Source of the DNA: a virus
Taxonomy: Duplodnaviria > Caudoviricetes
Virus record (IMG/VR): IMGVR_UViG_2524614764_000005
Span: 32,001-96,000 of that record
Length of the DNA stretch: 64,000 nucleotides
Direction: 5' to 3' (one strand)
The notes beneath the pieces are model-generated. The model saw nothing but the letters and a program-made list of their open reading frames with translations, did no database searches and was not told the origin of the DNA. How positions within the stretch are numbered: the first letter of the stretch is position 1; every line of letters begins with the position of its first letter. A program made the position numbers and the translations under genes. This document shows, one piece after another, positions 23,230 to 63,024 of the stretch.

Positions 23230-23283
23230 GAAGATATAGAAAAGAACGAAATAAAATGAATATTTTAAAGGGAGAGATTGGAT

Positions 23284-23472
23284 ATGAAAAAAGAAAAACC
23301 GAACAACTGGGTATGGACTAAATTAACAGAAGAAAAGCATCCTGATAGAAAAGCTGGAACACCTGTCCATACAGCTTATATGAGAGAGGGTGACGCTGAG
23401 TGGTCTCCTCACAGCTCATGGATTGCTAAAGGATATATCCAGCATGTTGATACGCTAAACTCGTCACAGTGA
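23284..23472 (+). CDS. Hypothetical protein
   Basis: ORF with SD GGAGAG. Confidence 0.6.
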   Translation: MKKEKPNNWVWTKLTEEKHPDRKAGTPVHTAYMREGDAEWSPHSSWIAKGYIQHVDTLNSSQ

Positions 23473-23570
23473 GTATAAACAAGCATTAGGCTGTGAGCGT
23501 CCTGGTCAATAGTGGCCAGGGGTTGTATCAAATGAAATTCTAATTTTATACAGAAGGAGAATGAGATAAT

Positions 23571-23816
23571 ATGACAAAAGAAAATAGAAACTTAGATATG
23601 CTTGAAGCCGAAAGAAAGATTGCTAAAAATAGATTGCAAGAACAGATTATTAGTATTAAAAGAACCTTGGATGATCTTGAATTTAAGCTCAAGAAAGATG
23701 ACAGGTATTTATTTTCATCTGATGGGCTTATGGGGAATAGTAATAGTATTGATATTTATTTAAATCAAGTTGTTGCATACGATCGAGCAATAGAATTAAT
23801 GAAAAGTGAAAGTTAA
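23571..23816 (+). CDS. Hypothetical protein
   Basis: 81 aa ORF with SD. Confidence 0.65.
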   Translation: MTKENRNLDMLEAERKIAKNRLQEQIISIKRTLDDLEFKLKKDDRYLFSSDGLMGNSNSIDIYLNQVVAYDRAIELMKSES

Positions 23817-23887
23817 ATAAAATGTTGATTTTCTACAGAAGGGAGTGATTCTGTCTGAAATACTTAAACGAGGCTGAACAGCGTGAA

Positions 23888-24187
23888 ATGTTGGAAGAAG
23901 AGGCTGAGAATTATTTGAGAAACCTCTACAATTCTAATCCAGTCGGCAGGGATGAAACCCCTAGCGTTTACCTGTCACAAGGAAAAATACAGGGTATGTG
24001 TAGAATATTTAATGCGACATTTACAGTAGAGCTTCGCAGAAAGATCACATTTTATAAATACAATAAATATCTTGATGAGAAGTTTTGGTTTCATGTAGAG
24101 AGTGAATATTTAACAAAGGAAGAAGCAGAACGTTTAATTAGCCAGATAAACAGGGATAACAGAGAAATCATGCAAGGGCTGTTATGA
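23888..24187 (+). CDS. Hypothetical protein
   Basis: 99 aa ORF; true start may be upstream. Confidence 0.6.
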   Translation: MLEEEAENYLRNLYNSNPVGRDETPSVYLSQGKIQGMCRIFNATFTVELRRKITFYKYNKYLDEKFWFHVESEYLTKEEAERLISQINRDNREIMQGLL

Positions 24188-24384
24188 GGAAGAGGGGGCA
24201 ACCAATGAAATTTAAAAACAAATATGATGCTTTAAATTACATCAATGAAAAATACGATGTTGTAAGCCATGAGGTAACATCATTTGAAGAGATAGATGAG
24301 TTTTGGCATTGTCTTAAACAATTGAATTTCATGAATAAGATACATGGTGATGATTTTAAGTTGGCAGAAAAAATTTGTGTGTGA
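24184..24384 (+). CDS. Hypothetical protein
   Basis: ORF track. Confidence 0.55.
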   Translation: MRKRGQPMKFKNKYDALNYINEKYDVVSHEVTSFEEIDEFWHCLKQLNFMNKIHGDDFKLAEKICV

Positions 24385-24407
24385 TCTGTATAGAGGAGAT
24401 TTATAAA

Positions 24408-24590
24408 ATGAACAAAAAAGAAATGACGGAGCAGGAGTTAAATGATATAAAAACTGAAATATTTCAATTAGAATCAGACAGAAATAATGTTGGTCATGCA
24501 GGCGTGATTGAATATATAGAGAAAAATTTGAAATTGTTGCGATTAGAAGAGGAGATGTATAAAAAAGAATTAGAAAGATTGAATGGATAG
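24408..24590 (+). CDS. Small coiled-coil protein
   Basis: SD GAGGAG before MNKKEM. Confidence 0.6.
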   Translation: MNKKEMTEQELNDIKTEIFQLESDRNNVGHAGVIEYIEKNLKLLRLEEEMYKKELERLNG

Positions 24591-24614
24591 AATATTAATC
24601 TTCCACAGAAAGGA

Positions 24615-24842: not shown

Positions 24843-25121
24843 ATGAGCAATGAAAACACTTGGGGATTAGCTTTTATCCAGATCGATGTCAAAGAGGATA
24901 GGTTCAATGAATTACTGTCACTAAACTTGGGTTCAGAACATAAGGCAAGGGAAGTTTTTAATCGTGTTAAGAATGAGTTTAAGGAAAATGACGGAGAACC
25001 TGATGGTGTTATTGATCTTATAGATGAAAATGAAGAAATTATCGATGATTATGCACTTACTACAAATCAATTGATTACAGTTGCCGCAATGCTTGGTCAT
25101 GAAATCGGAAAATCAAAATAA
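24843..25121 (+). CDS. Hypothetical acidic protein
   Basis: SD GGAG before MSNENTW. Confidence 0.6.
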   Translation: MSNENTWGLAFIQIDVKEDRFNELLSLNLGSEHKAREVFNRVKNEFKENDGEPDGVIDLIDENEEIIDDYALTTNQLITVAAMLGHEIGKSK

Positions 25122-25165
25122 AATGTTTCTTTTATACATAATGGAATTGTTTTTAATAAAGGAGG

Positions 25166-25471
25166 ATGATTAGTATCGCAAACAAAGGAGATATTCTTGT
25201 ATTCAAAGACGGTCAAGAATGTATGGTTGTCGAAAATAAAATAAGTCAAGGCAGCTACAATGAAAAAGGCGAATACCATAGCTGGGATGACAGCAGGTGG
25301 ATATTAGTGAATTTGGCAACAGGAAGTGTTGTATTACATTATCGATACAATATTCGATATGAAGATGGAATGCCTTATATACCTATGTGGGGCGGAGTAA
25401 CAAAAGTTAAAAAAAAGGGATCAGAAGAAATAATACGTTTGAGTGAAAATAAGATAAAACATGAGTTTTAA
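25166..25471 (+). CDS. Hypothetical protein
   Basis: 101 aa, SD AAGGAGG. Confidence 0.6.
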   Translation: MISIANKGDILVFKDGQECMVVENKISQGSYNEKGEYHSWDDSRWILVNLATGSVVLHYRYNIRYEDGMPYIPMWGGVTKVKKKGSEEIIRLSENKIKHEF

Positions 25472-25508
25472 ACAAATAAATAACACATATTAAAAAGGAG
25501 TAATAGTC

Positions 25509-25679
25509 ATGTATGTTGTTAGATTAAATGGTGGTTACTTTAAAAAGGGATATATCAATATTGCAGGATTAGAGTTAGATCCATCAACGCCATTGAAAAA
25601 AGATGCTAGGAAGTTTAAGAGCATGAAACAAGCTTATTTTTTCTCTTATAAAATGAATGGCAAAGTCGAGAAAGCATAA
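25509..25679 (+). CDS. Small protein (56 aa, MYVVRLNGGYF...)
   Basis: Read by hand; SD AAGGAG. Confidence 0.6.
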   Translation: MYVVRLNGGYFKKGYINIAGLELDPSTPLKKDARKFKSMKQAYFFSYKMNGKVEKA

Positions 25680-25707
25680 TAAATATTCTTAAAGGAGTGT
25701 ACCATGA

Positions 25708-25818
25708 ATGAAAACAATCCAGGAGCGGTTATTAAAACGGCGAGATGATTTAATCAGTGTTGCTGTATTTAGTATATTGGCCATTATGCTGCTTTGTGCA
25801 TTTGTTTATTCTGGATGA
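25708..25818 (+). CDS. Small single-TM protein (36 aa)
   Basis: MKTIQERLLKRRDDLISVAVFSILAIMLLCAFVYSG; SD AAGGAG. Confidence 0.5.
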   Translation: MKTIQERLLKRRDDLISVAVFSILAIMLLCAFVYSG

Positions 25819-25852
25819 ATTATAAATTACATATATTTGAGAGGTGAATAAT

Positions 25853-26011
25853 ATGCGAGATCTAATTAAGAAAGAACTTTCAAAACCAAGTATACACAAC
25901 ATGTTTAAAGGTTGGGCAGATCAGGAACAAATTTTAGATGAACTTGAAGAAGGGTACGTAAGTTATGATGGCAGCGTAGAGGATTACTTAAGTAACAAAT
26001 TAAACTACTGA
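25853..26011 (+). CDS. Small acidic protein (52 aa)
   Basis: Read by hand; SD GAGGTG. Confidence 0.6.
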   Translation: MRDLIKKELSKPSIHNMFKGWADQEQILDELEEGYVSYDGSVEDYLSNKLNY

Positions 26012-26038
26012 GCTTCTACATAAAAAGGGGTATGACCA

Positions 26039-26212
26039 ATGCCAATTGGAAAACAATTAAAACAAAAATTAGCTAACACAAATGCTTTTGAGAAGAAACA
26101 TAATGAATTCTTAATAGAAATTAAAGAATTTAAAAATAATAAAGAACTCCAAAATGAATATAAACGTGTGCAGCATGTTCTGAAAGATTCAATTGATGGG
26201 AGAGAGTCTTAA
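26039..26212 (+). CDS. Small protein (57 aa)
   Basis: MPIGKQLKQK...; stop overlaps the next ATG. Confidence 0.5.
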   Translation: MPIGKQLKQKLANTNAFEKKHNEFLIEIKEFKNNKELQNEYKRVQHVLKDSIDGRES

Positions 26213-26835
26213 TGGAAAGCAGTGAAAGTGCATCACTTAAAGTGCCTAAACATATCATAAGAAATGATAAATTCTATATAACAAATCAGGAATTTCATCT
26301 ATACGCTTACCTTTGCTATATGAATTTCAGAAATTTCAATGAAGAAGAGATGGAAGTAGATCATCTCAAACTGAAAAATCTTCTTAAGATCAGTGACGCT
26401 AGGACATTGAAGAAGCGTTTAAACACCTTACATAAGCATAATCTTATAAGGAATAAAATCGATAAACTTCCAACCAAGGGTACTATGAAAATTATCTTTA
26501 ATGGAGATGTGAAAAAGGATCAAATGTTCTGCAAGATGAATCCAATCATATTTACATATTTTAAGAATGATCAAATAGACTCGAATGGAATTAGGTTGGC
26601 TTTTTATTACAAGAGTTTCTCACATGAAGGATACTGTACAGTGGGGTTTGAAACACTAAAAGAGAATTTGAAAATTGGGAATAGTACTATTTCCAATTCA
26701 AACAAATCTTTAGAGAGGTCAGAACTTCTGAAAATAAAATCACATAAGTTAGAAACGTATGGTTACAACCAAAAAGATGCGTTGGTTATCGATAGTTGGA
26801 GTAATCATTACCAAATCTTAGAACCATTACGTTAA
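26212..26835 (+). CDS. Double winged-helix protein, Rep-like (paralog 1)
   Basis: EFHLYAYL, LKKRLNTL, GIRLAFYYKS. Confidence 0.6.
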   Translation: MESSESASLKVPKHIIRNDKFYITNQEFHLYAYLCYMNFRNFNEEEMEVDHLKLKNLLKISDARTLKKRLNTLHKHNLIRNKIDKLPTKGTMKIIFNGDVKKDQMFCKMNPIIFTYFKNDQIDSNGIRLAFYYKSFSHEGYCTVGFETLKENLKIGNSTISNSNKSLERSELLKIKSHKLETYGYNQKDALVIDSWSNHYQILEPLR

Positions 26836-28003: not shown

Positions 28004-28146
28004 TCTGAATAAAATGATGTTTTTATTAATAAAATAATAATGTTGAAACTGATATCCTACTAAACTAACAATATGTTACAATGCCAATATAAGGATAACT
28101 TTAAAAGTAACTCACAAATGACAGCTGCTGAAAGGTTTGTTGAAAA

Positions 28147-28773: not shown

Positions 28774-28869
28774 CTTATTGACTGTTATAAGAAACAATTG
28801 CAAAATGAGCTTCAGTGTTAGTAATAAAGATCAAATAAAATCATTCTTTTAAGGAGAGGTGACAGTTAG

Positions 28870-29922
28870 TTGATTAACATTTTTATAGATACGAACATCT
28901 ATGAGGCGAAGAATTTTAATTTTGATAATAGTAGTATTTCCAGGCTGCAAAATTTCATTGAGAATGAGCATGTTGAATTATTTATAACACCCGTAATAAT
29001 AAAAGAAATCGAAGATCACATTGAACAAAAGGTTGAGGGGTCAGGGAAACAAATTAAGGAATTTAAACAAAATGCGCCTATTATGATAAATTTTGAACCA
29101 TTAAAAAAGATATGGGATCGCGACTTGATAAATCAAGCAAAATTGAAAATTTTAGACCGCTTTCATGAATTTTTAAGAATAAATAGAGTGTATACAGTTC
29201 CTATCAGTGTCACTTATGCAAATCAAATTATACAAAATTACCTTGAAGGCAGTGCGCCTTTTAGTAAAAAAAAGAAGAAAGAATTCCCAGACGCTTTTAC
29301 TATGTATACTCTTTTGGAATGGGCTGAAAAAAATAACGAGATAATTTGTATAATTAGTAATGATAAGGAAATTAGGGATTTTTGTGAGGGTAATTCTAGA
29401 CTCTATTACATCAAGACATTGGAAGAGGCCTTTGATTATATAAACCAACAAGATGATGTTAAGTATCAACAAGCTCAAAACATTTATATGGATCATCTGG
29501 AACAATTTCTAGATGATATAGACAATGAAATTAATGAAGCATGCTTTGCTTTTAATATAGAGGTTTTTGATGTTGAAGATGTAAAAGTAAAAGACTTTTC
29601 TCTTGTGAGAGAAGGGGAATGCTACGATGAGCCTCGGGTTCTTGAATTAGAAGATAGTAAACTTACATTTGTACTTGATGTTAATTTTGAGTTTACTATT
29701 GTAACCAGTAAAATTGACCCCACAAGATCTCCATACGATTCTGAGGAGGGAATGTACTTATACATAGAATATGAAGAAACAGAATATACAGAAATCGTTG
29801 AGCTACCGGTAGAACTTGAATTAAATGTTCAGGATTATGAGAAACAAGACTTTATTATCGAATCAATAAAAATAAATAATGATGAAGCATATCTACATAC
29901 TATTAATGATGATTATTTTTAA
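28870..29922 (+). CDS. PIN-domain protein (DUF4935-like) with acidic C-terminal domain
   Basis: IFIDTNIY, KEFPDAF, IISNDKE. Confidence 0.8.
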   Translation: MINIFIDTNIYEAKNFNFDNSSISRLQNFIENEHVELFITPVIIKEIEDHIEQKVEGSGKQIKEFKQNAPIMINFEPLKKIWDRDLINQAKLKILDRFHEFLRINRVYTVPISVTYANQIIQNYLEGSAPFSKKKKKEFPDAFTMYTLLEWAEKNNEIICIISNDKEIRDFCEGNSRLYYIKTLEEAFDYINQQDDVKYQQAQNIYMDHLEQFLDDIDNEINEACFAFNIEVFDVEDVKVKDFSLVREGECYDEPRVLELEDSKLTFVLDVNFEFTIVTSKIDPTRSPYDSEEGMYLYIEYEETEYTEIVELPVELELNVQDYEKQDFIIESIKINNDEAYLHTINDDYF

Positions 29923-29977
29923 AATTAAATGTGCTATTTTAAATAAAAGAAGTATTTCATTTAGAAGGTGATGAAAA

Positions 29978-30386: not shown

Positions 30387-31544
30387 ATGAATCTTAAAAC
30401 ATACATAAAAAATAAATGCGAAGATGATTCTTCATTGGCTATGAAATTAGCTAAAATAGCTGGCTATTCGGATAGAACTGGCCTTTATAAATTCTTAAAT
30501 AGCCCTAACAAAGAGATGGATGATTTAAACAATCTTATTAATTTAGTTAGGGAAGTTGATCAAGAAAGAGAAATTGAAATAATTAGCACCTATATTACAA
30601 CACTCGACCCTAACAAATCAGCTGCTAGACAAGCTGTAGAATATTTAGATGCTAATCAACTTGGCGACGAAACTGATGAGCTAGTTATTAAATTATGTAA
30701 TGCCAGCAACGCAGTGAGCAAAGAGTGGGGGAATGTATATCGCATCCATAGATTGCTCACAAAAGGTGAAATTGATTTAACTTCTGCTATCAAAGAAACT
30801 GGAACTATTAAAATCAAGAGTGAGGAAATGTTTGTTTTTTCAAGAATGATGACATTATATGAATACCTAAACATTGGTGAGTTTGGTCTTATGAAAAGCA
30901 CTTCAACATATATCGATCTATCTAATTTGAAAAAGGGATACGTTAAGGATTCCTTTAGCTCAAGGTATTTGTTGCTTATGGCCAACGTGTTTTTAAATGA
31001 TAACAATTTAAAACCTCTTAGAGACTACTGTAATCAAATTATATCTGAAGAAGTTAAGGTGAATCGATTTCAAGTGTTTGCTCACCTCACTTGCGGGAAT
31101 TCTTATGTGTTTGATGATTATGATAAAGCAAAAGCATATTACATCAACGGTATGAAATTCGCAAAAAACAGTTTTCATAAATATAAACTTAGATCTGCAT
31201 TAGCATTCTTAGAAAACACATGGGGAATAAAAGAAAACAAATACCTGGAACAGGAACCTAAGAATGATTCTGATTTTATAGAACTCGCACATCATTTAAT
31301 GCTTAATGATCAAACCGAAAAAATGATGGAGGTGTTTAATAAATTAGATTCATCTACTATGCATGACAATGATTTAGGTTTTCTCTACTACGTTAAAGGA
31401 ATTTTCTATAAAGATAAGGCTTGCTATTTGAAATCAGTTAAACATTTTAAGAAATCAGATGACAAGTATTTTATCAAGCTACCTCTAATTAAGTTAAAAA
31501 CAATGGGCATAGATAGTGAGATTTTAGATTTATTGGCTATCTAA
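30387..31544 (+). CDS. aimR: Arbitrium receptor AimR (HTH plus TPR, RRNPP family)
   Basis: 385 aa; LAKIAGYS...ARQAVEY...SKEWGNVY; followed by a propeptide gene; TTGACA at 30337. Confidence 0.93.
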   Translation: MNLKTYIKNKCEDDSSLAMKLAKIAGYSDRTGLYKFLNSPNKEMDDLNNLINLVREVDQEREIEIISTYITTLDPNKSAARQAVEYLDANQLGDETDELVIKLCNASNAVSKEWGNVYRIHRLLTKGEIDLTSAIKETGTIKIKSEEMFVFSRMMTLYEYLNIGEFGLMKSTSTYIDLSNLKKGYVKDSFSSRYLLLMANVFLNDNNLKPLRDYCNQIISEEVKVNRFQVFAHLTCGNSYVFDDYDKAKAYYINGMKFAKNSFHKYKLRSALAFLENTWGIKENKYLEQEPKNDSDFIELAHHLMLNDQTEKMMEVFNKLDSSTMHDNDLGFLYYVKGIFYKDKACYLKSVKHFKKSDDKYFIKLPLIKLKTMGIDSEILDLLAI

Positions 31545-32752: not shown

Positions 32753-33835
32753 ATGAATTCGAAAGCAGTCCCATTAAAGGAATACACTGTATATAACGAT
32801 ATAATGACCTATCTAAAAAAGATCGATGATGAAGGATCAGTAGGAAATATTGATGTTTTTTCTAAAACACAGCGGAGACATAAATTGTTTGAGACAAATA
32901 CAGCAGTTAATTATTATGGTGACATTAAACAATTCTTTGGTTTTCTTAAACCCACTATTGGAATAGAGTTTTTAACTCCGAAAGATATTGAAATCACATC
33001 AATTGACCTGATAAATTTTAGGAAACATCTGAAAGAAAAAGGTTTGGCGAATTCAACTATCAACCGTAAAGTGATATCAGTTAAAGGCTTATACAAGTTT
33101 CTTAAGTCAGTTAGTACTTATTCTTCTTCAATTGATTTAAATCAATTTGGATCAACAAAGAAATTAAAAGAAATCTCTAAAAGTTACGGCAAAACTACAC
33201 AAACTGAAGCAGAAAGAATTGCTGAAAACATGCTATTTGAGCGGGAGAATGGCTTAAAAAAGAAGCTACTAACAAAATTTCTAATTCGTACTTCTTTTAG
33301 GATCGAGTATGCACTTACTGTTAGATGGATGGATATCAAGAAAGTTGATGGTGAATTGTATAAAGTTGAAGCTTTGAACAAAGGTTCGTATGTAGTTTCT
33401 ACAGGACTACATGAAAATTTCTTAAATGAGTTGCGGCAATTAAGAAAACAAAACAGTATGGAGAATGATTTAGTGTTTGGTGGATTGACATCAAGATCTT
33501 ACAGAGAATCGTTCAACAGAGCTTTGGATAGATTAGATATACCTGCATCAAGAAACCTTAAACCTCACTCTTTAAAGGGAGTTGGGATTGATATAGCTTA
33601 TGAAGAGTCTGGCAATGATATTCGAGTTGCTATGAATCAAGGGAACCATAAAGATCCTACGACTCCATTGAGATATTTAACTAAAAATGACAACATCGAA
33701 AACTCTGCGGGTATATTGATGGATAAAGAAGTAGATTTTACATTGATTGAAAGTGCGACAAAAGAGGATTTTGTCAATTTTTTTCGTAAAGCAGATAGGG
33801 GAACTATGCAAAAGTTCCTAGATTTTGTGAGGTAA
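32753..33835 (+). CDS. yopP: Tyrosine recombinase-fold protein SroD/YopP
   Basis: TSFR, PHSLK, GNHKD..TPLRY; SAM-like STINRK. Confidence 0.8.
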   Translation: MNSKAVPLKEYTVYNDIMTYLKKIDDEGSVGNIDVFSKTQRRHKLFETNTAVNYYGDIKQFFGFLKPTIGIEFLTPKDIEITSIDLINFRKHLKEKGLANSTINRKVISVKGLYKFLKSVSTYSSSIDLNQFGSTKKLKEISKSYGKTTQTEAERIAENMLFERENGLKKKLLTKFLIRTSFRIEYALTVRWMDIKKVDGELYKVEALNKGSYVVSTGLHENFLNELRQLRKQNSMENDLVFGGLTSRSYRESFNRALDRLDIPASRNLKPHSLKGVGIDIAYEESGNDIRVAMNQGNHKDPTTPLRYLTKNDNIENSAGILMDKEVDFTLIESATKEDFVNFFRKADRGTMQKFLDFVR

Positions 33836-33918
33836 GTTTACATTTAGATTAATTTTATGACTATAAATTGATTTAATATAATTTGTTTGTTATTTTTGTT
33901 TTAGAAGAGGTGTGCTAT

Positions 33919-35307
33919 ATGAATAAGTTAGTTATTTTTGATAATGAAAAAGATGCTTTACTAAATGAAACAATAGAAATGCTATTGCAAAAAAATAAAC
34001 ATGACAAACAATTTAGAGAAAGACTGCAAAATGCTCTTTCTCATAAAGGCGTTTCGCCAGGGGAAACGATGAATCTAATAATAAGATTTGGGAGACAGGA
34101 AGCGCTGCAGAAAGAAGAAAAATACCTACTAGCTTCAGGTATATACGAAGTAACTAAAGATGAAAAGATTAATCCAATAAATTATTTTCCGGAAAGAATA
34201 ATTCAAGAAATTGAAACAACGTGGGAAGGTTTCTCACAGAATAATGACAGTGAGCTGAATTTTCCCATAAAATTTGAGGATGTTACTAAAGTAGATGACA
34301 ACAACTACACATTCTTACTTAAAAGAAGTGAAATAGCAAAGATGTATGAAAACCATTTGCTTCAATACAACCCAAGAACTCAAAGGACTAGTGAGACTAA
34401 AAATTTTGAGTTCTTAGGTGGTGAAATACCTATCCCTGAGCTAAATCAAAACGCAGTAGAAGAGATTTCACAAAAAACTATCTATGGTACCTTAATAAGC
34501 TCAACTTTAATACTTAACGCAAGATTTGGTTCATCTTCCGAAGGGATTGAGGTAGTTTATGACCCCCATGAAAGAACTTTAACAGTTATGAGCGGCACTC
34601 TGCTAGATGTAATTGATGGTTATCATCGAATTGTAGGGATATCGAAAGCAGTAAGATCTGGCAGCTTTGATGATAAATTTATGAAAATAGACTTTTATAA
34701 TGTAACTCAGAAAGTTGCAAGACAGTTATTTGGTCAGCATAATACAATGACTCCTGTAAGACTTTCGAAGTTAAAAGAAATGAATGAAGAAAATCCTGTG
34801 AATAAAGTTGTTACTCATATAAGAGACAACAGTGTAATTGGACAGAGAATCAGTTTAGATATTGATGTTATTACAACTCATTCAGATTATTTATATTCTT
34901 TAAATGACGTAGCAAATGCAGTTGAGGCTACAAAATTTCCTAAGCTGCTTAAAGATCAGATTGCTGTAAGAAAAATAGGGGTTTATTTGGTAGAATTTTT
35001 TGATGAAGTGACTGAGTTTTATTATGAAGAGTTTCTGGGTGACAAATTTGAGCAGGCGCAAAAAACAATTGTAATAAATAAAAATATTTTAGTTGGATTG
35101 ATGGAAATAGCGTATTATATGTACACTTCTGGAATTAGCGCAAAAATGGCGCAACAAATAATTATAAAAAAGGGATTTAACTTCAACAGAAATAATCCAG
35201 AATTAACAAAATACAAAATATTGAATAAAAAAAATGAAGTAACTCACAGTAAGAATCATATTTTAAAATATGTTAAAGACAAATTGAATGAAGTAGAAGG
35301 TGTATAG
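33919..35307 (+). CDS. yopQ: ParB/DndB-like (DGxHR) protein SroE/YopQ
   Basis: YNPRTQR and VIDGYHR motifs. Confidence 0.75.
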   Translation: MNKLVIFDNEKDALLNETIEMLLQKNKHDKQFRERLQNALSHKGVSPGETMNLIIRFGRQEALQKEEKYLLASGIYEVTKDEKINPINYFPERIIQEIETTWEGFSQNNDSELNFPIKFEDVTKVDDNNYTFLLKRSEIAKMYENHLLQYNPRTQRTSETKNFEFLGGEIPIPELNQNAVEEISQKTIYGTLISSTLILNARFGSSSEGIEVVYDPHERTLTVMSGTLLDVIDGYHRIVGISKAVRSGSFDDKFMKIDFYNVTQKVARQLFGQHNTMTPVRLSKLKEMNEENPVNKVVTHIRDNSVIGQRISLDIDVITTHSDYLYSLNDVANAVEATKFPKLLKDQIAVRKIGVYLVEFFDEVTEFYYEEFLGDKFEQAQKTIVINKNILVGLMEIAYYMYTSGISAKMAQQIIIKKGFNFNRNNPELTKYKILNKKNEVTHSKNHILKYVKDKLNEVEGV

Positions 35308-35309: not shown

Positions 35310-36299
35310 TTGTGGTATAACTCACAGTTTAAAAAAACTTATTTAGATACATTAAGTAGTGATAGCCAGCAAAAGCAAGTATCACTGTTGTTCAATCACT
35401 CTCAAAAAGAGGAAGAAATAAGAGAAAAAGACTTATTTGATTTTACAACGGATGAAATTTTGAATGTGCTAAGAGCAATGTATTCAACTTCTCTTGCATC
35501 TTTGGAAACATTTTTATATAACATGATAAGCTATATAGATTGGTCAATTGCAAATGGTGTTACAAAGGGTAGTAATAATTTGGCTAGGTTGATAAAAACC
35601 AATGATTTATTGTCATGTATAGATTCTTCATTAAAATTATATATAACTAAAAATGAATTAGAGAAAATGTGTGCAGAATTAATTAATGCCCAAGATAGAG
35701 CATTGTTTAGATTGCTTTTTGAGGGAATATTGGGCTTTGAGGCAAGTGAAATGACCAGTCTTAAAAGAAGTGATATTGAAAAAGCGTTGAATAATAATAA
35801 TATGCTAACTGTGCATGATTCTAAATTTGGCGAAAGAACTGTAAAAGTAGACAAAATAACTTTGCAAGACTGTCTTGAAGCAAACCGACAAACAGAATAT
35901 AAACCATTGAATGGGAAACCAGGGCTAAGAAAGCCATCATTAAGTTTAGTTGATAATGAATATGTAATAAAAACAAAACAGACTAATGCGATTGGACAAG
36001 GACAAGCTTCGAGAACTGTAGTAAGTTCTACTTTTAGAAACCTTAAAGAAATTTTTGGTTTTTCATTTTTAAGACCTATAGGTATAGTTAAGTCAGGCCT
36101 TCTATATGAGGGTTATAAGCTGATATTAAAAGGGGAAGAGTTGGACAGAAAAGCTCTTAATGAAATATATGAAGATAGGAAAGTCCAAACAACGGACTTG
36201 AACCAAAAGATCATTTCAGATCGAAGAGAATTTATGAATGAGGAAACCATAAGAAAATATTACGCAGATGAACTTAAAGAAGAAGGCAAATCTAAATGA
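35310..36299 (+). CDS. yopR: Master repressor MrpR/SroF/YopR (recombinase fold, non-catalytic)
   Basis: KDLFDF, NAQDRALFRLLFEGILG; last gene of the sro operon. Confidence 0.8.
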   Translation: MWYNSQFKKTYLDTLSSDSQQKQVSLLFNHSQKEEEIREKDLFDFTTDEILNVLRAMYSTSLASLETFLYNMISYIDWSIANGVTKGSNNLARLIKTNDLLSCIDSSLKLYITKNELEKMCAELINAQDRALFRLLFEGILGFEASEMTSLKRSDIEKALNNNNMLTVHDSKFGERTVKVDKITLQDCLEANRQTEYKPLNGKPGLRKPSLSLVDNEYVIKTKQTNAIGQGQASRTVVSSTFRNLKEIFGFSFLRPIGIVKSGLLYEGYKLILKGEELDRKALNEIYEDRKVQTTDLNQKIISDRREFMNEETIRKYYADELKEEGKSK

Positions 36300-37349: not shown

Positions 37350-37473
37350 GAGCATTATTTGCTCTTATTTTTATGTAAATAAAACAAAATAACAATTATC
37401 TATTGACATGGAATGGAAGAGTATCGTAACATTAAAATACAAATAACATATATATTAACGGAAGGAGTTATGA

Positions 37474-37644
37474 TTGGAAATATTAGAATCAAAGTTAGAA
37501 AAGATTGAGGGTTCGATTTCTAATTTCAAAAGAAACTTAGAAAAAGGTAAGACTGAAGCAATTGGTGATATTCATTCAATAATAGAGTACGGCTATGAAT
37601 TGCTCTACATATATGAAGCAGCAAGATATGATGATAAAATGTAA
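37474..37644 (+). CDS. Small protein (56 aa, MEILESKLEK...)
   Basis: Read by hand; SD AAGGAG; downstream of TTGACA (37403) and an SPBRE. Confidence 0.55.
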   Translation: MEILESKLEKIEGSISNFKRNLEKGKTEAIGDIHSIIEYGYELLYIYEAARYDDKM

Positions 37645-37734
37645 GTTTTATTTAGAATAGGAGGTAAAGGCCATATCGTAAATGATCAATCATTTGAAAT
37701 TAAAAATACAAATTACAAGCATACTATAGACTTA

Positions 37735-39637: not shown

Positions 39638-39674
39638 CAAATAAAAAATAAGCTTTCACAAAAAAAGAGGAGAT

Positions 39675-39941: not shown

Positions 39942-39983
39942 CAAAATAAAAGATAGTTTTTAAGGGGTTATGTAACGGAGAGA

Positions 39984-40796
39984 TCAAGCTCTCCATGATT
40001 CGAAGGATGGTATACGGAGTTTTCCGTTCTTGGTCTTATATCTGTGCTTAACCTTACATATAATAGGTTCGATTAATACATAATCGCCAGATTCAGACTT
40101 TACTTGTTTCATAGCGTGGAATCTATTACGTTCTACAGATGGCATGAATTCCATAAGCCCAGCTGCAGTTCCATCAGGATAGGTTAGAAGAAACTTTATA
40201 TCCTTTTTGGTGTAGCCAGTAATAAGAACTTCAGTGTAATCATAATTAATCACTTTAAGCCAATTATGAGAACGTTTATTGATTTGATAAAGGGAGTCAG
40301 CTTTCTTGAGTACGATTCCTTCTAAGTTCTTTTCTTTGGCCAAATTGAAATATGCAAGGCCGTTACCTGGAATTCCCCCGACAGTGCATATATTCGGATG
40401 ATTTAGTTCAAGTAAGTTTAGTGCTGTCTTTCGTTCAGTGAGTGTCTTAGTTGCTATTGACTTACCGTTTTTATAGATAACATCAAAAACACAGTAAACA
40501 ATACTATGAGCAGTTTTATTGGACATAAAACGTTCCATCACAGCATCAAAATTAGGAGCGCCGTCTGGGGCAGCTACAATAACTTCACCATCGAGAACTG
40601 TTCCATTTGGGATATCTAAATCTAAAAGCTCAGGAAACTTATTTGTAACTTCATTATTGTGCCGAGTATAAAGCTTTATCTGATCATTAAACTTGGAAAG
40701 GATAAGCCTTAACCCATCAAATTTAAGCTCTGTAATGTACCTATCATCATCGAATGGTTCTCTAATTGAATGCAACAACATTGGCGATACAAACAA
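39984..40796 (-). CDS. ligB: ATP-dependent DNA ligase
   Basis: ELKFDG, LDGE, EGIVLK, WLKV. Confidence 0.92.
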   Translation of the reverse strand: MFVSPMLLHSIREPFDDDRYITELKFDGLRLILSKFNDQIKLYTRHNNEVTNKFPELLDLDIPNGTVLDGEVIVAAPDGAPNFDAVMERFMSNKTAHSIVYCVFDVIYKNGKSIATKTLTERKTALNLLELNHPNICTVGGIPGNGLAYFNLAKEKNLEGIVLKKADSLYQINKRSHNWLKVINYDYTEVLITGYTKKDIKFLLTYPDGTAAGLMEFMPSVERNRFHAMKQVKSESGDYVLIEPIICKVKHRYKTKNGKLRIPSFESWRA

Positions 40797-40865
40797 AATA
40801 TCACCTCCTACCTATTACATAATAACGAAGTGAAGGTGATATATAAAGCGAAAGAACAGTGGTAC

Positions 40866-41540: not shown

Positions 41541-41615
41541 GTTCATCATCCTTTAGGAGTTTTGAACATTGTACAAGGTTGACAAGGGAAAATCAAAAAG
41601 ATAGGTGGTGACGCA

Positions 41616-41831
41616 ATGTCCGTAATAGGAACAGAGCAAGTTCAAGTATATGTTGAAGGCGTATGGACACAACAACCTTTTAGTGAATTAAGCTGTGGCC
41701 AGGTATTCAAAATGTTGCATGAAGAAGGCATTGGAATTTATGCAGCAATTAGCGATGCATGGTACGACGAGCTGTATGAACAGTGGATGGTACATATTAA
41801 AGAAGATCACGGCGGATTAATTAAAAAATAA
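41616..41831 (+). CDS. Small protein (YoqX position)
   Basis: 71 aa; synteny. Confidence 0.55.
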   Translation: MSVIGTEQVQVYVEGVWTQQPFSELSCGQVFKMLHEEGIGIYAAISDAWYDELYEQWMVHIKEDHGGLIKK

Positions 41832-41851
41832 CATATATATGAGGTGTTTAT

Positions 41852-42160: not shown

Positions 42161-42200
42161 GGATAAAACAGAGATTTCATATAGATTGAGGAGGATTGAA

Positions 42201-44654: not shown

Positions 44655-44753
44655 ATGAAAAACTGGAAAAGACAACATTTCATACTTACATTACTTAATT
44701 TAAGCGCACTTGCTGTTATAGGCACCCTAATTATCATACATAACTTCAAATAA
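44655..44753 (+). CDS. Small single-TM peptide (32 aa)
   Basis: MKNWKRQHFILTLLNLSALAVIGTLIIIHNFK; weak SD. Confidence 0.35.
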   Translation: MKNWKRQHFILTLLNLSALAVIGTLIIIHNFK

Positions 44754-44772
44754 AAACAACCTTTTAACGAAA

Positions 44773-45997: not shown

Positions 45998-46342
45998 ATG
46001 AAACCTAAAATTACAAAAGAGCAGGCGAAAGCGATTGAGGTTCTACGGAGTGTTCATAACGATAGTAGAATACTAGAAATGTACGTTGAAGACAGTGTCG
46101 GACATAATTGTGCCTCTATACGTGATCTTAATCTAATTGAACTCGCCACTGCTTTAATTAACGGATATGAAGTTGAAAAGTTGCCTGAGGAAAAGGTTCG
46201 GGAATTTTACGATTATAATCACGCAAAACATGAGCAATCGGAGGCATTAAGTCCAGAGGATCATTACACCGCAGGAACAGAATGGGGAATCAGACACACG
46301 CTGTGTCTATTGGACATCAAAATCGAAGGGATAAGCACATGA
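45998..46342 (+). CDS. Hypothetical phage protein
   Basis: KITKEQAKAIE...ALINGYEVE. Confidence 0.65.
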   Translation: MKPKITKEQAKAIEVLRSVHNDSRILEMYVEDSVGHNCASIRDLNLIELATALINGYEVEKLPEEKVREFYDYNHAKHEQSEALSPEDHYTAGTEWGIRHTLCLLDIKIEGIST

Positions 46343-47052
46343 AATACGATAAAACATTCGTTTTAAGTGATATACACGGTGAATTGGCAAAGTTTAAGGA
46401 GCTGCTCCAGTATTGGAAACCGAATGAAGAAAACCTGGTTATCCTTGGTGATCTAATTGATAGAGGTGAACACTCTCTAGAGGTCGTCCAACTGGCTATG
46501 GATCTAAAGAACACATACAATGAGCAGGTTGTTGTGTTAAAAGGAAATCACGAAGACATGCTTTCGATTTTCTTATCTGAAAAAGACTATCAAACAGGAG
46601 ATTGGTATTTTAATAATGGTGGGAATAGAACATGCGAAAGCTTCACGCAGTATAGTTTCCCATTGTATTTCCACAGTTATGAAGAGAGAGCTAATAAGAT
46701 GCTGCAAGTGTCTAACAAGGAAATTCAATTCCTTAAGCAGTTGCCTCTGCATTATGAATTTGGAGATATGCTTTTTGTACATGCAGGGATTAATCCTCAT
46801 TTAAACGATTGGAGAAAATCAGTTGAGAAAGATTTCCTGTGGACTAGAGGTCATTGGAACCATCCAAATGAAACAGGGAAGGCAGTCATTTTTGGCCATA
46901 CTCCAGTTAGACATATTCATGATAGTGATGAAGTATGGGTTAGTAAATGCAAGTCTTACATAGGCATTGATGGTGGAGCAGTTTTTAAGGGTCAACTAAA
47001 CGGCATTGTGATTGATAAAAAAGGACAGATTTTAGAAAAATATAAAGTGTAG
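46339..47052 (+). CDS. Ser/Thr protein phosphatase-like metallophosphoesterase
   Basis: SDIHG, LGDLIDRG, GNHE, HAG, FGHTP. Confidence 0.9.
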   Translation: MKYDKTFVLSDIHGELAKFKELLQYWKPNEENLVILGDLIDRGEHSLEVVQLAMDLKNTYNEQVVVLKGNHEDMLSIFLSEKDYQTGDWYFNNGGNRTCESFTQYSFPLYFHSYEERANKMLQVSNKEIQFLKQLPLHYEFGDMLFVHAGINPHLNDWRKSVEKDFLWTRGHWNHPNETGKAVIFGHTPVRHIHDSDEVWVSKCKSYIGIDGGAVFKGQLNGIVIDKKGQILEKYKV

Positions 47053-49805: not shown

Positions 49806-49850
49806 AGAATAAAACTGTCATTTTAATTTAAAAATAACATACAAAAAGTA

Positions 49851-49879
49851 TTGACTAAAATACAAATTACATATATTAT
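49851..49879 (+). promoter_or_regulatory. SigA promoter of the replication operon with SPBRE spacer
   Basis: TTGACT-aaaatacaaattacata-TATTAT. Confidence 0.85.
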
Positions 49880-51640: not shown

Positions 51641-52771
51641 ATGAGTTTCAGAAAAACAGTTAAGAACATTGTACCTAAAGTCGATTTGCAATCCTATATG
51701 CTTGGGATTGCTGGGGGCTATAAATCAGGAAAAACGAGATTGTATAAAGAGTTAATCGAAAATTTTTATCCAGGAGATCCAGATGCAGGACTTCTATTAG
51801 CTTTTGAGCCAGGATATAACACTTGGGAGTTAGATTCAGTTATTCCTATGCATGACTATGATTGGGAATTCTTTAAAGGCGAAGTAGTAAAAGGGCTGCT
51901 CGATGAAGCAAAAAATGGCAGAGTAACAAAGGTTCTTGGAATTGATACAGCAGATAGAATGATGGATATGGCCACAGATTACATTTTGAAGAAATTAAAC
52001 CAAAAGTACGCAAAAAAAATGAAAACACTTCAGGAAGTCTCTGAAAATGTTAAGGGACTGAACGGCTACATGCTATTAAAGAAAGAAGTTTGGGATCAAT
52101 TAGATTTGTTGAAAAATGCAGGATACGGCATCATTTGGTTGGCTTGGACTAAAGAAAAAGAAACTACTACCAGAGATGATCTTAAATACAACTCAATTGA
52201 ATTGAAGATGAGTAAAACAGGAGCCGATATCTTTGAATCTCAAGTTGATTTAATGTGCACTCTGCATAATGAAGTAAAAGTGATGGATAAGAACGGAAAT
52301 GAACTTGAAGAGAACTTAAAAACTAAAAGTGGCAAAGAACAAGCAGCTAAGTTTCATTCTACAGAAGCGTACATGTACTTCCTCCCTTCAAGTTATATCG
52401 GAATTGGAGGAGGGAGATTTACAGATCTCCCTGAGAAGGTTCCGTACGGTGTAGAAAACTACTTAGAAGTCTTTGAGAATGCGGTCAAAGGTCAACTTAA
52501 AAAAACTACTAAATCAATTAAAGAACTCAAAAGTGAAGAAGATCAAGTTAGAGAAGAGAAGGCTAAAGAGTTTGTAGATAAAGTAAACGAACCCGACCCT
52601 AATAAAATTATTGAAGAGATTAATTCTCTTGTTTCAGATATTCAGCGGGATAAGAAACTTGAGCTATCAGAAAGATTTAAAGAGGCATTCGGTGAAGGTA
52701 ACTATAAACAGCTTAAAACTGTTGAAGAATTGAACAAAGCTCTTGAAATTGTTAGATCATTCTTAAATTAA
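51641..52771 (+). CDS. AAA/Sak4-like NTPase (YorG-like)
   Basis: GGYKSGKT, LAFEPG, IDTAD. Confidence 0.75.
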   Translation: MSFRKTVKNIVPKVDLQSYMLGIAGGYKSGKTRLYKELIENFYPGDPDAGLLLAFEPGYNTWELDSVIPMHDYDWEFFKGEVVKGLLDEAKNGRVTKVLGIDTADRMMDMATDYILKKLNQKYAKKMKTLQEVSENVKGLNGYMLLKKEVWDQLDLLKNAGYGIIWLAWTKEKETTTRDDLKYNSIELKMSKTGADIFESQVDLMCTLHNEVKVMDKNGNELEENLKTKSGKEQAAKFHSTEAYMYFLPSSYIGIGGGRFTDLPEKVPYGVENYLEVFENAVKGQLKKTTKSIKELKSEEDQVREEKAKEFVDKVNEPDPNKIIEEINSLVSDIQRDKKLELSERFKEAFGEGNYKQLKTVEELNKALEIVRSFLN

Positions 52772-60743: not shown

Positions 60744-60760
60744 AGAAGAGAGTGACTTGA

Positions 60761-60916
60761 TTGAGCAAGCTTACTTTAGGACAAAGAGTATTAACCTTAT
60801 ATGGGGAAGGAACAGTAGTGGAAGTACATAAGAACAATCAATATGGAGTTGCTGATGATGAGTACAACCTGGTCGAACTTTATGACAGAAGTGAATTAGC
60901 TGAATTAAGGAGGTGA
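60761..60916 (+). CDS. Small SH3-like protein (51 aa)
   Basis: Read by hand: MSKLTLGQRVLTLYGEGTVVEV... Confidence 0.5.
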   Translation: MSKLTLGQRVLTLYGEGTVVEVHKNNQYGVADDEYNLVELYDRSELAELRR

Positions 60917-60920
60917 TATC

Positions 60921-61079
60921 ATGTTTGAGGTAAACGACACAGTAATAGTTAACCATAATAAAGAAAGGGCAGTAGTGGCTACAGTGTCAACTCGATACTC
61001 ACAACTTGAAGTGCGATATGAGGACGGATCTCATGAAGTAATGGGATTTCACAAAGTTACAAAGGAGGATGATAAATGA
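60921..61079 (+). CDS. Small protein (52 aa, YorQ position)
   Basis: SD AAGGAGGTG; MFEVNDTVIV... Confidence 0.6.
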   Translation: MFEVNDTVIVNHNKERAVVATVSTRYSQLEVRYEDGSHEVMGFHKVTKEDDK

Positions 61080-61582
61080 TCATTATTTTAGAGGGGTGTG
61101 ACTGCTGCTATAAATCTACAGTAGCAAAGCAGCTGTCAAAAAAGCTAGATTACAAAATACTACGAGGTTCGTCGTTTGAATTAGCTAAAGGAAGTCAGGA
61201 CAGCCTATATGATTATTGTTTTGAACTTACAAAACATGAAAACTTGATTATCGATAGATACATATATTCTAACCTTGTTTATGCAACGATGTTTCCCGGT
61301 CATGCAAAGCTTTCAGATGAGCAAGTAAGCAATATCGAGAACAAAATACTGAGTAAGGCCAAGTTAATCTATCTTCATGCAAGACCTGAAGTAATAAAAG
61401 AAAGGATTCTTAACAGAGGAGATGATCAGGTTAACACAAAAGACATTGAACCAATTGTGGAACTCTATAACGAAGTGATACCAAAGTCGAAATTACATAC
61501 ATATTCGTTTGATACAGAGATCTATGGCAGCGGTGAAATTGTTGAGGATATAATCTACTTGGTCAGTGAGGAAGGCTCATGA
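61076..61582 (+). CDS. yorR: dNMP kinase-like (YorR)
   Basis: LEGCDCCYKST, IIDRYIYS. Confidence 0.8.
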   Translation: MIIILEGCDCCYKSTVAKQLSKKLDYKILRGSSFELAKGSQDSLYDYCFELTKHENLIIDRYIYSNLVYATMFPGHAKLSDEQVSNIENKILSKAKLIYLHARPEVIKERILNRGDDQVNTKDIEPIVELYNEVIPKSKLHTYSFDTEIYGSGEIVEDIIYLVSEEGS

Positions 61583-62100
61583 AAAGAAAAGTTATTGCAA
61601 TTGATATGGATGATGTATTAGCAGATTTCTTACCAGCTTGGGTAAAAGCAATCAATCAACATGATGACCCATCATTAAAATGTGAAAACATAAAGTCTTG
61701 GAGCATCTTAGATTACGTGAATACAAAAAATGATGTGTTTAGGCATTTAACGTATGACTTCTTTAAGGGTTTAACAGAAAAAAAAGACAGCCAGAAAGTT
61801 GTTAAGAATCTATGTGATCTCTACGAAGTGTATGTTGTTACTACTGCAACAGCACATCCAGAATCATTAAAAGCTAAATTAGAATGGTTGCAGGAACACT
61901 TTCCATTTTTCTCATATGACCATGTTGTTCTTTGTGGAAATAAAAAGATCATTAAAGCTGATTACATGATTGATGATGGAATACATAACTTGGAGAAATT
62001 TGAAGGCGTGGGCATAGTGTTTGATGCACCTCACAATGAAGATGATAAAAGATTTGTCCGTGTTAAGAATTGGGAAGAAATCGGTCAGAAATTACTTTAA
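61579..62100 (+). CDS. yorS: 5'(3')-deoxyribonucleotidase, HAD (YorS)
   Basis: IDMDDVLAD, KLEWL, MIDD. Confidence 0.88.
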   Translation: MKRKVIAIDMDDVLADFLPAWVKAINQHDDPSLKCENIKSWSILDYVNTKNDVFRHLTYDFFKGLTEKKDSQKVVKNLCDLYEVYVVTTATAHPESLKAKLEWLQEHFPFFSYDHVVLCGNKKIIKADYMIDDGIHNLEKFEGVGIVFDAPHNEDDKRFVRVKNWEEIGQKLL

Positions 62101-62142
62101 AATATCTCTTTTATAGAAAATTAATATTAGGAAGGTGTCTGA

Positions 62143-62943
62143 ATGGCGAGTAAAATTAAAAGCCCGCTTCGGTGGGTTGGTGGAAAAAGCAAGTTATTAA
62201 ATAAAATAATACCTCTTATCCCTGAGCACAAGGGATTTGTTGAAGTCTTTGGGGGTTCTGCCGTTGTATTATTGAACAAAGAAGAGGCGAAATGGGAAGT
62301 TCTAAATGATTATGATAGCAATTTAGCTAATTTCTGGTCAGTGATTCAAAATGCAAAAGAGCAATTTTTGAGAGCTTTTGATTATGAAATCGTAAGCAGA
62401 GAAAGGTTTAATGAGTACAAAATAAAATATAAGAATAACGAATTTGAAGATGCGATTGAAAGGGCAAAAATATTTTATTATTTAGTTCGATCTTGTTTTG
62501 GGAGCGACATGAAAAGTCCAGTGTTTGGAGCATCTAAAGACAGAAATAGGTTAAGAATTGATAAGATACAAGACGATATCGATGCTGTTTATAAAAGATT
62601 TGTTGGAGTTACAGTTGAAAATAAATCTTTTGAGGATATTTTTAAAATTTACGATAGTGAAAACACTTTTTTCTATCTAGATCCACCTTACAGAAACACA
62701 AAACAATACGCAACTGGAAAATTCACAGACGATCAATATAGAATGCTTAGGGATTGCTGTCTAAAAGCGAAGGGCAAATGGTTATTAACAATCAACAATG
62801 ATCCTTATATTAGAGAATTGTTTAAGGATTTTTATATAGTTGATCACAGCGTTTGGTACAGTGTATCCAAAACAGCTGATGGTAGAGGGGATTTCAAGGA
62901 GTTGTTAATATCCAATTATAACTTTAACGATCTTATAAGTTAA
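62143..62943 (+). CDS. Dam/D12-class N6-adenine DNA methyltransferase
   Basis: WVGGKS, EVFGGS, LND, YLDPPY, ELLISNY. Confidence 0.92.
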   Translation: MASKIKSPLRWVGGKSKLLNKIIPLIPEHKGFVEVFGGSAVVLLNKEEAKWEVLNDYDSNLANFWSVIQNAKEQFLRAFDYEIVSRERFNEYKIKYKNNEFEDAIERAKIFYYLVRSCFGSDMKSPVFGASKDRNRLRIDKIQDDIDAVYKRFVGVTVENKSFEDIFKIYDSENTFFYLDPPYRNTKQYATGKFTDDQYRMLRDCCLKAKGKWLLTINNDPYIRELFKDFYIVDHSVWYSVSKTADGRGDFKELLISNYNFNDLIS

Positions 62944-63024
62944 TAAATTGAAGGAACATAGTAAAACTAGAGTTTTTGGAATCAAAATAAAAGATCAATT
63001 TCAATCAGAAAGGGAAGGTGAAAT

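Follow-up and report, generated by a model that had tools for sequence, protein, structure and literature searches.

Among the closest described systems to the element reported here is XerH-difH of Helicobacter and Campylobacter (5JK0, 5JJV), in which a single recombinase uses a near-palindromic site with AAAA/TTTT inner arms and a 6-bp central region; difH has the sequence TGAAAA-N6-TTTTCA, and recombination depends on its four As (PMC3325230). Our subject is a palindrome of similar build, TAAAA-N6-TTTYA, which recurs between the accessory genes of a distant SPbeta-like Bacillus phage (assigned by tblastn). It was studied in a stretch of 64,000 nucleotides (nt), referred to below as the window, comprising bases 32001–96000 of the 104,461-bp IMG/VR provirus record IMGVR_UViG_2524614764_000005. 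Deposited SPbeta-like phages match the window at the DNA level in the ligase region only, at ~84%. From comparison of related genomes we propose that these palindromes are address-specific exchange joints, that is, sites at which phages would exchange the adjoining genes with a partner carrying the same 6-bp centre at the corresponding position (the address), and we put the probability of this interpretation at roughly 0.85. There are several differences from difH, which occurs once per chromosome and, together with FtsK, functions in dimer resolution, whereas the palindrome is present at 20–45 sites per phage genome, with differing centres and at gene junctions, has a T rather than a G beside the A-tract, and has an activity that is predicted. 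No published description of the motif was found, including in the main SPbeta papers.

Three other recombination systems share parts of this arrangement. First, heterospecific lox sites have inverted arms and an asymmetric spacer, recombine with same-spacer partners only, and when used in pairs allow clean replacement of a segment; but cassette exchange between variant lox sites is a laboratory design, natural P1 has one loxP, the lox spacer is 8 bp rather than 6, and the arms of the palindrome are shorter, with five strictly conserved bases and three outer positions. Secondly, the pdif sites of Acinetobacter are numerous and dif-like, with variable 6-bp centres and small gene modules that differ between related replicons, but they have distinct XerC and XerD arms, alternate in orientation and depend on host Xer, whereas the arms of the palindrome are symmetric, its centres are position-specific and ordered, and a phage recombinase is the candidate enzyme. 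With symmetric arms and no definable alternation these sites are not members of the pdif/dif modules, and the resemblance to pdif drawn in an earlier, sequence-only reading of this DNA gives way to a closer one with XerH-difH or lox. Thirdly, integrons are made up of arrayed single-gene cassettes that lack promoters and have tyrosine-recombinase sites at their boundaries, but here there is no folded attC-type site of variable length, no attI/Pc platform was seen, no site moves along with each cassette, and gene order is kept and not shuffled. The sequence-only reading had envisaged single genes being excised and shuffled in an integron- or pdif-like array; we find no evidence for shuffling of order within a genome, the centres being conserved position by position, nor for excision or circular cassettes in contig comparisons, which cannot show rare excision products.

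Short repeated intergenic motifs that flank accessory genes and mark mosaic boundaries are also a feature of PeSL cassettes and of lambdoid boundary sequences. The PeSL cassettes are those of T4-type phages, reportedly described by Arbiol and colleagues in 2010. Both the PeSL and the lambdoid elements are longer promoter/stem-loop repeats, presumed to act by homologous recombination, and are alike at all positions, whereas the palindrome is 16–28 bp long and has a position-specific centre.

The motif TAAAA-N6-TTTYA has 39 strand-matches in the window, whereas 100 dinucleotide shuffles gave 4.1 on average and at most 11, and there are 22 distinct sites with a spacer of 6 as against 1–6 at any other spacer from 0 to 13; perfect TAAAA-N6-TTTTA occurs 17 times, but once with a spacer of 5 and never with a spacer of 7. 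At least 16 of the 22 sites fall in the 10.7% of the window that lies outside the interior of open reading frames (ORFs; binomial P ~1e-11), and 18 of the 22 are at junctions when the sites at 25455 and 44751, found by hand to overlap upstream stop codons, are added. The usual placement is between accessory genes, in contact with the upstream stop codon and 5–12 nt ahead of the next ribosome-binding site, and none of the 17 junctions of the aimR-sro and replication operons carries a site. The excess over chance at this one spacer, the preference for gene boundaries and the absence from core operons, all put forward in the sequence-only reading, were thus borne out, and its 15 exact sites are all present. 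Its remark that every core differs is true, but chance predicts as much (~0.1 duplicate pairs expected), and it is not evidence on its own. Six window sites that it did not list are at 3099, 5792, 15205, 34682, 46350 and 57154; those at 3099, 34682, 46350 and 57154 lie within genes, in a number close to the chance expectation, and the one at 46350, which codes for DKTFVL at the start of a metallophosphoesterase, owes its conservation to this coding role. Taken together, one-mismatch copies show no excess (20 at spacer 6, 22 at spacer 5 and 35 at spacer 7). Three of the five that had been reported, at 23533, 23818 and 62962, are at junctions, agree with the site pattern and are real, whereas the copy at 39643 consists of a left arm only, a remnant of a site with centre GATGCA, and that at 29926 is weak.

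To compare related phages, loci were fetched from IMG/VR around homologs of the ligase (62 loci), of YonV (70 loci) and of YorS (2 loci), and are cited by L numbers below; the main counts refer to the ligase set of 64 sequences, made up of the 62 loci together with the corresponding segments of the window and of SPbeta. This set contains 521 perfect sites at spacer 6, as against 17–35 at other spacers, and the 521 sites use only 55 centres, which follow one common order with presence/absence variation. A second ordered series of centres is found after YonV in close relatives, and in 46 distant loci sharing only the YonV homolog the motif is not enriched. Four of 18 window centres (GATAGT, GTAATT, GATCAA and TTCTAA) recur in SPbeta, in the same order and beside other neighbour genes, where ~0.1 would be expected by chance. 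At a single address one 16-mer may be joined to as many as 10 upstream and 13 downstream unrelated protein families (blastp, 1e-4); all four combinations of two upstream with two downstream families are present at AGACTG, ACGATA, GATGCA and TCGTGA, and the same gene family is found after different addresses. The centres are also better conserved than their surroundings, with a per-base identity of 0.84–0.97 where both homologous flanks are only 60–85% identical. One pair of centres, TGATAA and TTATCA, are reverse complements and were considered as a sign of inversion, but one pair among 55 centres is about the chance expectation, and an inversion does not agree with the flanking sequences. When IMG/VR was scanned with the extended consensus as a pattern, most of the contigs returned were unrelated, and the scan was not used.

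Ends of homology blocks between these loci concentrate at both edges of the sites. The sites make up ~1% of positions, and the proportion of block ends located at them rises with the identity of the block, from 11% for blocks of 70–80% identity through 21%, 27% and 34% to 54% for those of at least 98%. Breaks between genes are favoured everywhere, and even junctions lacking the motif are broken (one flank homologous and the other not) in 0.50 of informative comparisons, as would be seen if the motif were purely regulatory or structural and the breakpoints reflected selection for between-gene recombinants. We consider that explanation very improbable, because junctions with the motif are broken more often (0.86) in every gap-size class, the breaks are within a few bases of the 16-mer, breaks at sites dominate the most recent events, and site pairs with no detectable flank homology share a centre in 2.8% of cases compared with <0.1% by chance. 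The clearest pattern is in recent one-sided junctions, defined as having one flank at least 97% identical and the other unrelated: among 161 such pairs the centre is identical in 151, differs by 1 nt in six and is different in four. On these comparative data exchange takes place almost exclusively between partners with identical centres, and selection against deletions could contribute to the pattern. As a control we collected conserved 16-mers with unrelated flanks on both sides, of which there are 98; 61 overlap the palindrome and 37 do not, and most of the latter are a multi-copy box of the phi3T type, whose flanks are diverse because it occupies many positions within one genome, and not because a single position has undergone exchange. 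A few further conserved 16-mers with varied flanks turned up in the control in several of L042–L103, among them GGAGGGCGCGGAGTGA and CCTGAGTTATTGGAGG.

Within the window, homology blocks shared with the closest relatives start or stop at the sites at 23252, 23533, 25119, 29944, 39947, 42164, 42852, 44751, 49810, 62098 and 62988, and the expectation that gain, loss and replacement of genes among relatives would break at the sites is confirmed at base-pair resolution. The best defined replacement is the cassette at 42164–42867, bordered on the left by the site at 42164–42179 (centre CAGAGA, TTTCA right arm) and on the right by that at 42852–42867 (centre GTAATT); an L078 block of 94% identity spans it exactly, and L064 has other DNA between the same two addresses. 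The GTAATT site is followed by a yoqU-like gene, and the identical 16-mer lies between yoqY and yoqZ in SPbeta with unrelated flanks. A slot has been gained or lost near the right end of the window, where L251 and L252 have the GATCAA site alone, joined to the same upstream gene, and the window has two sites with an ORF at 62143–62943 between them. The left border of this extra cassette is the site at 62098–62113 (centre TATCTC), with the homology to L251 and L252 stopping at 62119–62120, and the right border is at 62988–63003 (centre GATCAA, TTTCA arm), with homology resuming at 62987–62988; the divergence from L251 and L252 starts exactly at the border between left arm and centre. The same GATCAA centre is found at the yorT/mtbP junction of SPbeta. 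A one-mismatch site at 62962–62977 (centre CTAGAG, TTTTT arm) is positioned 10 bp ahead of the GATCAA site, and the two together (62962–63003) enclose an interval with no gene that looks like an empty slot.

A third informative region is at 39642–39658, where an intact left arm is followed by a 7-nt gap and TTTCA, the centre and right side being foreign. Homology with L078 and L064 stops at this left arm, and the relatives have a GATGCA site there, followed by 4.9 kb with three more addresses. Data from public sequencing runs, among which no RNA set was listed, were available as contigs, each run covering at most a third of the stretch; one such contig diverges from the window after 39646 and continues GATGCA-TTTCA, and a second joins the window at 39944 and departs at 41838, the end of an SPBRE-like promoter. 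The adjacent site at 39947–39962 (centre GATAGT), from which L057 and L078 blocks run beginning at 39944, is present as an identical 16-mer in SPbeta with both flanks unrelated. In two cases resolved to the base, the break falls exactly between left arm and centre, which is compatible with cleavage and strand exchange at the borders of the centre, and is not proof of it.

The remaining junction sites show variations on the same theme. The site at 12687–12702 (centre TTAAAG) is exact and intergenic, between the leftwards ORFs 12070–12660(−) and 12814–14013(−) of the late region. At 23252–23267 the centre is TGAATA, or TGCATA in more distant relatives; this address is present in ~20 loci, and homology ends at 23274 with L181 and at 23252 with L203. 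The site at 23533–23548 has a TGAAA left arm and the centre TTCTAA, the same as at the SPbeta yotB/yotC junction but with another downstream gene, and an L203 block runs from 23532. The one-mismatch site at 23818–23833 (centre TGTTGA, TTTTC arm) is immediately 3′ of the stop codon of ORF 23571–23816. At 25119–25134 (centre TGTTTC) the upstream gene takes its stop codon from the left arm, and a block of 98% identity with L181 begins at 25116 after 1.8 kb without homology. At 25455–25470 (centre CATGAG) it is the right arm that provides the stop, of ORF 25166–25471; the address is present in L181, L182 and L203, with CATGAA or CATGGA elsewhere. The next three addresses are retained in relatives with unrelated genes between them: 28010–28025 (centre TGATGT) lies immediately after a terminator-like hairpin and is kept in L181 and L203, with the genes up to 29944 non-homologous; 28836–28851 (centre TCATTC) is upstream of a PIN_12-domain gene; and at 29944–29959 (centre GAAGTA, GAAGTG or GAAGCA in relatives; TTTCA arm) homology resumes, at 29938 with L181 and at 29936 with L203. 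The most widely shared address is TGTAAG at 37635–37650, found in 40 of the 64 loci with three upstream and 13 downstream unrelated gene families. At 44751–44766 (centre ACAACC) the left arm is again the upstream stop codon, and an L064 block starts at 44749. Finally, the site at 49810–49825 (centre CTGTCA) is located between a terminator hairpin and an SPBRE-like promoter, and L057, L064 and L078 blocks all start at 49809.

A logo built from 420 distinct contexts gives a dyad-symmetric consensus of ~28 bp, T-Y-T-R-R-A-TAAAA-N6-TTTTA-W-A-S-A-R-A, next to which comes the Shine-Dalgarno (SD) sequence. The inner 5-bp arms are invariant by definition of the search; the outer positions −6 to −4 (T-Y-T) mirror positions +19 to +21 (A-R-A), and the positions next to the arms are asymmetric. 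Two inverted recombinase-type arms around a fixed 6-bp central region are thus present, and the sequence-only reading's suggestion that the sites have the layout of a tyrosine-recombinase core site is supported. Complementarity between left and right outer positions does not exceed that expected from base frequencies, and this lack of covariation points to a duplex bound by protein and not to a hairpin. It also led us to reject an RNA role, in which a weak A-U hairpin upstream of the ribosome-binding site would control translation or processing: the constant distance of 5–12 nt to the SD sequence fits such a role, but we find it scarcely credible, since it is sequence and not pairing that is conserved outside the invariant arms, the position-wise conservation of the loop (the centre) would be unexplained, and several copies are placed after a terminator and before the following promoter (28010 and 49810 in the window, and the SPbeta copy upstream of yorE), which argues against a function in mRNA.

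Dispersed intergenic elements of another kind, SPBRE and Phi3TRE, are present in the same phages and are bound by a recombinase-fold protein, but they are specific to immunity type, embedded in promoters, the same in sequence at each copy and bound by a monomer, whereas the palindrome is universal. Stoperators of mycobacteriophage L5 are many identical, asymmetric sites oriented with transcription and bound by the immunity repressor; the palindromes are likewise numerous and intergenic, but they are symmetric, occur across immunity types and have position-specific centres. In SPbeta the yorE, yorZ and yosX promoters share a box, different from the palindrome, that overlaps the −35 and −10 regions, and most palindromes are too near the SD sequence for a promoter to fit in between. 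The repressor MrpR (YopR, SroF) binds SPBRE at ten SPbeta promoters, and chromatin affinity purification sequencing (ChAP-seq) places its peaks at these alone (PMC10516654); because the ten peaks do not match the 34 palindromes of SPbeta and the promoter-embedded box is a different one, the palindrome is not the SPBRE/MrpR operator, in agreement with the view that the sites are not plain operators of a known repressor. The SroF box of phi3T binds a monomer, and its copies all have the same sequence (bioRxiv 10.1101/2025.11.27.690993). Its reverse complement, GAATAAAA-ATAAAA-TTAC, resembles one arm of the palindrome plus its centre, and boxes of this type are multi-copy repeats in many relatives; with only one arm alike and no copy in the window, identity of the palindrome with this box was also rejected. 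The box (A)GAATAAAAATAAAAT, the core of the published phi3T SroF operator, is present in 50–78 copies in the 64 loci (L042–L103), often immediately after a palindrome, and is absent from the window. The window has instead a promoter-like repeat, TTGAC-N-AAAATACAAAT[AT]ACATATAT, at 23213–23240, 37404–37455, 41826–41840 and 49851–49877, which is probably this phage's own SPBRE and the operator of its MrpR-like repressor; we note that public-run contigs join or break at copies of it.

The candidate enzyme, or binder, is a YopP/SroD-like tyrosine recombinase encoded at 32753–33835(+), with a Pfam Phage_integrase domain, a SAM-like N-terminal domain and 45% identity to its SPbeta counterpart; it is the only match to PF00589 (Phage_integrase) in the contig. 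Residues Arg183, Lys210, His272, His299 and Tyr308 are invariant across 13 YopP homologs, down to 21% identity, and the homologs are found in Bacillus, Geobacillus, Staphylococcus and Lactococcus phages, some of them described as virulent. Sequence and profile searches of the YopP-like protein against the PDB gave no match, and only a fold search did so: the best fold matches of the model (predicted local distance difference test, pLDDT, 76) are to XerH bound to difH, above XerA, lambda Int and Cre, by modest margins. A site-specific recombinase would explain the palindromic arms, the 6-bp centre, the same-centre rule, the breaks between arm and centre and the absence of sites from core operons. 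It would also explain why phages that do not integrate, or do so through a serine recombinase, have kept a recombinase that looks active; and if strand exchange needs identical centres, the address behaviour would follow. We give about even odds to the joints being heterospecific core sites on which a XerH-like tyrosine recombinase of the phage, from the YopP/SroD family, acts.

The distribution of the motif, counted as perfect copies, extends to several other phages. SPbeta has 34 copies at spacer 6 and 0–3 at spacers of 4, 5, 7 and 8. Copies at spacers 6 and 7, respectively, number 30 and 1 in Geobacillus virus E3, 23 and 3 in Tsamsa, 17 and 4 in a Staphylococcus SPbeta-like phage, and 7 and 1 in Lactococcus phage 949, each of which has a YopP-like gene; in E3 all 11 sites of a 23.5-kb stretch are in short gaps between small genes. 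Clostridium phage c-st has 31 copies at spacer 6 and 5–10 at spacers of 4, 5, 7 and 8, and Stahl has one copy each at spacers 6 and 7. There is no enrichment in SPO1, A511 and 0305phi8-36 (none at spacer 6) or in K (four, with four in the control), and these four phages have no tyrosine recombinase. Use of the sites by the dimer resolvases of the host (RipX/CodV in Bacillus), in the manner of pdif and other Xer-exploiting elements, is suggested by the 11+6+11 layout typical of dif-type sites and by the occurrence of the motif in phages of several Firmicutes genera whose hosts all have Xer proteins. We think this improbable, because XerC/XerD sites have two different arms and those of the palindrome are symmetric, the arms of Bacillus dif do not resemble TAAAA/TTTTA, there is no enrichment in SPO1 and K, which infect the same hosts, and the phages encode a XerH-like gene of their own.

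Some observations on gene neighbourhoods bear on this distribution. Integrase-like, DndB-like and MrpR-like genes adjoin one another in E3 (L180, record 106015–109465), so that the sroD-sroE-sroF module extends beyond the Bacillus SPbeta-like phages, and the Staphylococcus SPbeta-like phage has all three. In c-st, a very distant phage, a DndB-like ORF and, after it, a weak integrase-like ORF (record 25176–26571) have a palindrome at 26141 between them, an arrangement that recalls yopQ-yopR. A presence/absence profile of eight phages picks out genes for the MrpR-like protein and a YonG-like structural protein (11163–11990 in the window), present in five of five motif-bearing and none of three motif-free phages, and does not single out YopP; being confounded by shared ancestry, this profile was not used as evidence.

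Several points weigh against the proposal that the palindromes are exchange joints served by the YopP-like protein. The comparative counts are drawn from related genomes and lack phylogenetic independence, although the effects are large and consistent. Block boundaries are also found at SPBRE-type promoters, which implies that a joint can be formed by any short intergenic sequence that is conserved. The second catalytic Arg position of the YopP homologs is always Lys or Arg, and is Lys in the window, SPbeta and several others; the protein diverges to 30% identity among phages with identical sites; and c-st has the motif without a YopP ortholog, carrying another tyrosine recombinase and the DndB-like/integrase-like pair. 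SroD was reportedly described by Brady and colleagues in 2023 as an auxiliary repressor. The phages also encode a Sak4-like protein, and in laboratory crosses between phi3T and SPbeta 15 of 16 junctions were in long homology (bioRxiv 10.1101/2020.05.06.055103).

These points are relevant to the most serious rival, in which the palindrome is bound by a dimeric phage regulator (for example as an SroD or SroE roadblock that resembles a stoperator and represses accessory genes) and exchange proceeds through the 16–22 bp of identity that it provides, the one stretch of homology that cassettes otherwise unrelated have in common, by relaxed Sak4-like annealing or host RecA. Dyad symmetry with an 11-bp centre-to-centre spacing would suit a dimeric regulator too, yopP, yopQ and yopR are expressed in lysogens (bioRxiv 10.1101/2021.11.22.469490), AAA_24 (Sak4-like) and RecJ-like genes are present, and the same-centre rule is equally expected from a need for unbroken identity; the breaks at SPBRE-type promoters and the outcome of the laboratory crosses help it further. 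However, it provides no reason for the centres to outlast the coding flanks regardless of which genes are adjacent, or for the core operons to be free of sites; 16 bp is short for homologous recombination, and yet the sites account for 54% of the most recent block ends; and YopP-like proteins, unlike the repressor MrpR, which lacks the catalytic set (PMC10516654), have preserved their catalytic residues through deep divergence. We regard this rival as unlikely on balance, though deserving of attention. Several SPbeta-like phages are homologous to SPbeta exactly as far as the palindrome between yorZ and yosA (L001 31999–32014; ~116415 of the SPbeta record). The laboratory junction near yosA that Dragos et al. 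termed 'non-homologous' may be this palindrome; that junction of the phi3Ts-SPbeta hybrids was not located in the deposited hybrid genomes.

The organization of the window is otherwise that of an SPbeta-like phage, as determined by tblastn and domain searches. The late genes, with a YonO-like RNA polymerase, occupy 1–18240 and are transcribed leftwards, and the early genes downstream of this block are transcribed rightwards. At the start of the early region is a gene for a tubulin/FtsZ-family protein (19192–20304, +; Pfam Tubulin, E 4e-20) resembling PhuZ and TubZ. The accessory cassette genes include those for the PIN_12-domain protein (28870–29922) and a calcineurin-like phosphoesterase (46339–47052). 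aimR is at 30387–31544, and to the right of the YopP/SroD-like gene are those for a YopQ/SroE-like protein with a DndB-like domain (33883–35307, +) and an MrpR/YopR/SroF-like repressor with a degenerate recombinase fold (35310–36299, +; Pfam MrpR_C_cat and MrpR_N_CB). A block containing LigB and YoqW (39984–41549) is transcribed leftwards. The replication operon, at ~50–60 kb, encodes AAA_24/Sak4-like, DnaB-like, primase, RecJ-like and PolA proteins; the AAA_24 (Sak4-like) protein (51641–52771, +) would be a possible engine for exchange by short homology.

Each position in the genome has a 6-bp centre of its own. If the palindromes are exchange joints of the kind proposed, this centre would act as a slot number, and related phages would swap one or a few genes at matched addresses with the gene order unchanged; on rare occasions two different addresses would be joined, so that an entire slot is lost or gained and a single intact site is left behind. 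The dozens of heterospecific palindromes in each genome would be acted on by a XerH-like recombinase, a counterpart of cassette exchange between lox variants, and co-resident phages could exchange their accessory and anti-defence genes one slot at a time, the order of essential genes being left intact. We tentatively suggest that this is a natural form of recombinase-mediated cassette exchange, driven by YopP/SroD, in SPbeta-like and allied Firmicutes siphophages (E3, Tsamsa-like and Staphylococcus SPbeta-like phages).

Classical views of phage mosaicism invoke either illegitimate recombination followed by selection or special linker sequences, and how genes are swapped cleanly has long been an open question. 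In this model phage family, over half of the youngest exchange boundaries are accounted for by short palindromes, each with a centre specific to its position. Were the exchange driven by a dedicated recombinase, this would be a new natural use of tyrosine recombination, and would make sense of the puzzling 'integrase' genes found in large phages whose integration is by other means or does not occur. The sites predict where accessory and counter-defence genes are located in these phages, they represent a ready orthogonal set for the engineering of Bacillus phages, and the proposal is directly testable in SPbeta and B. subtilis 168.

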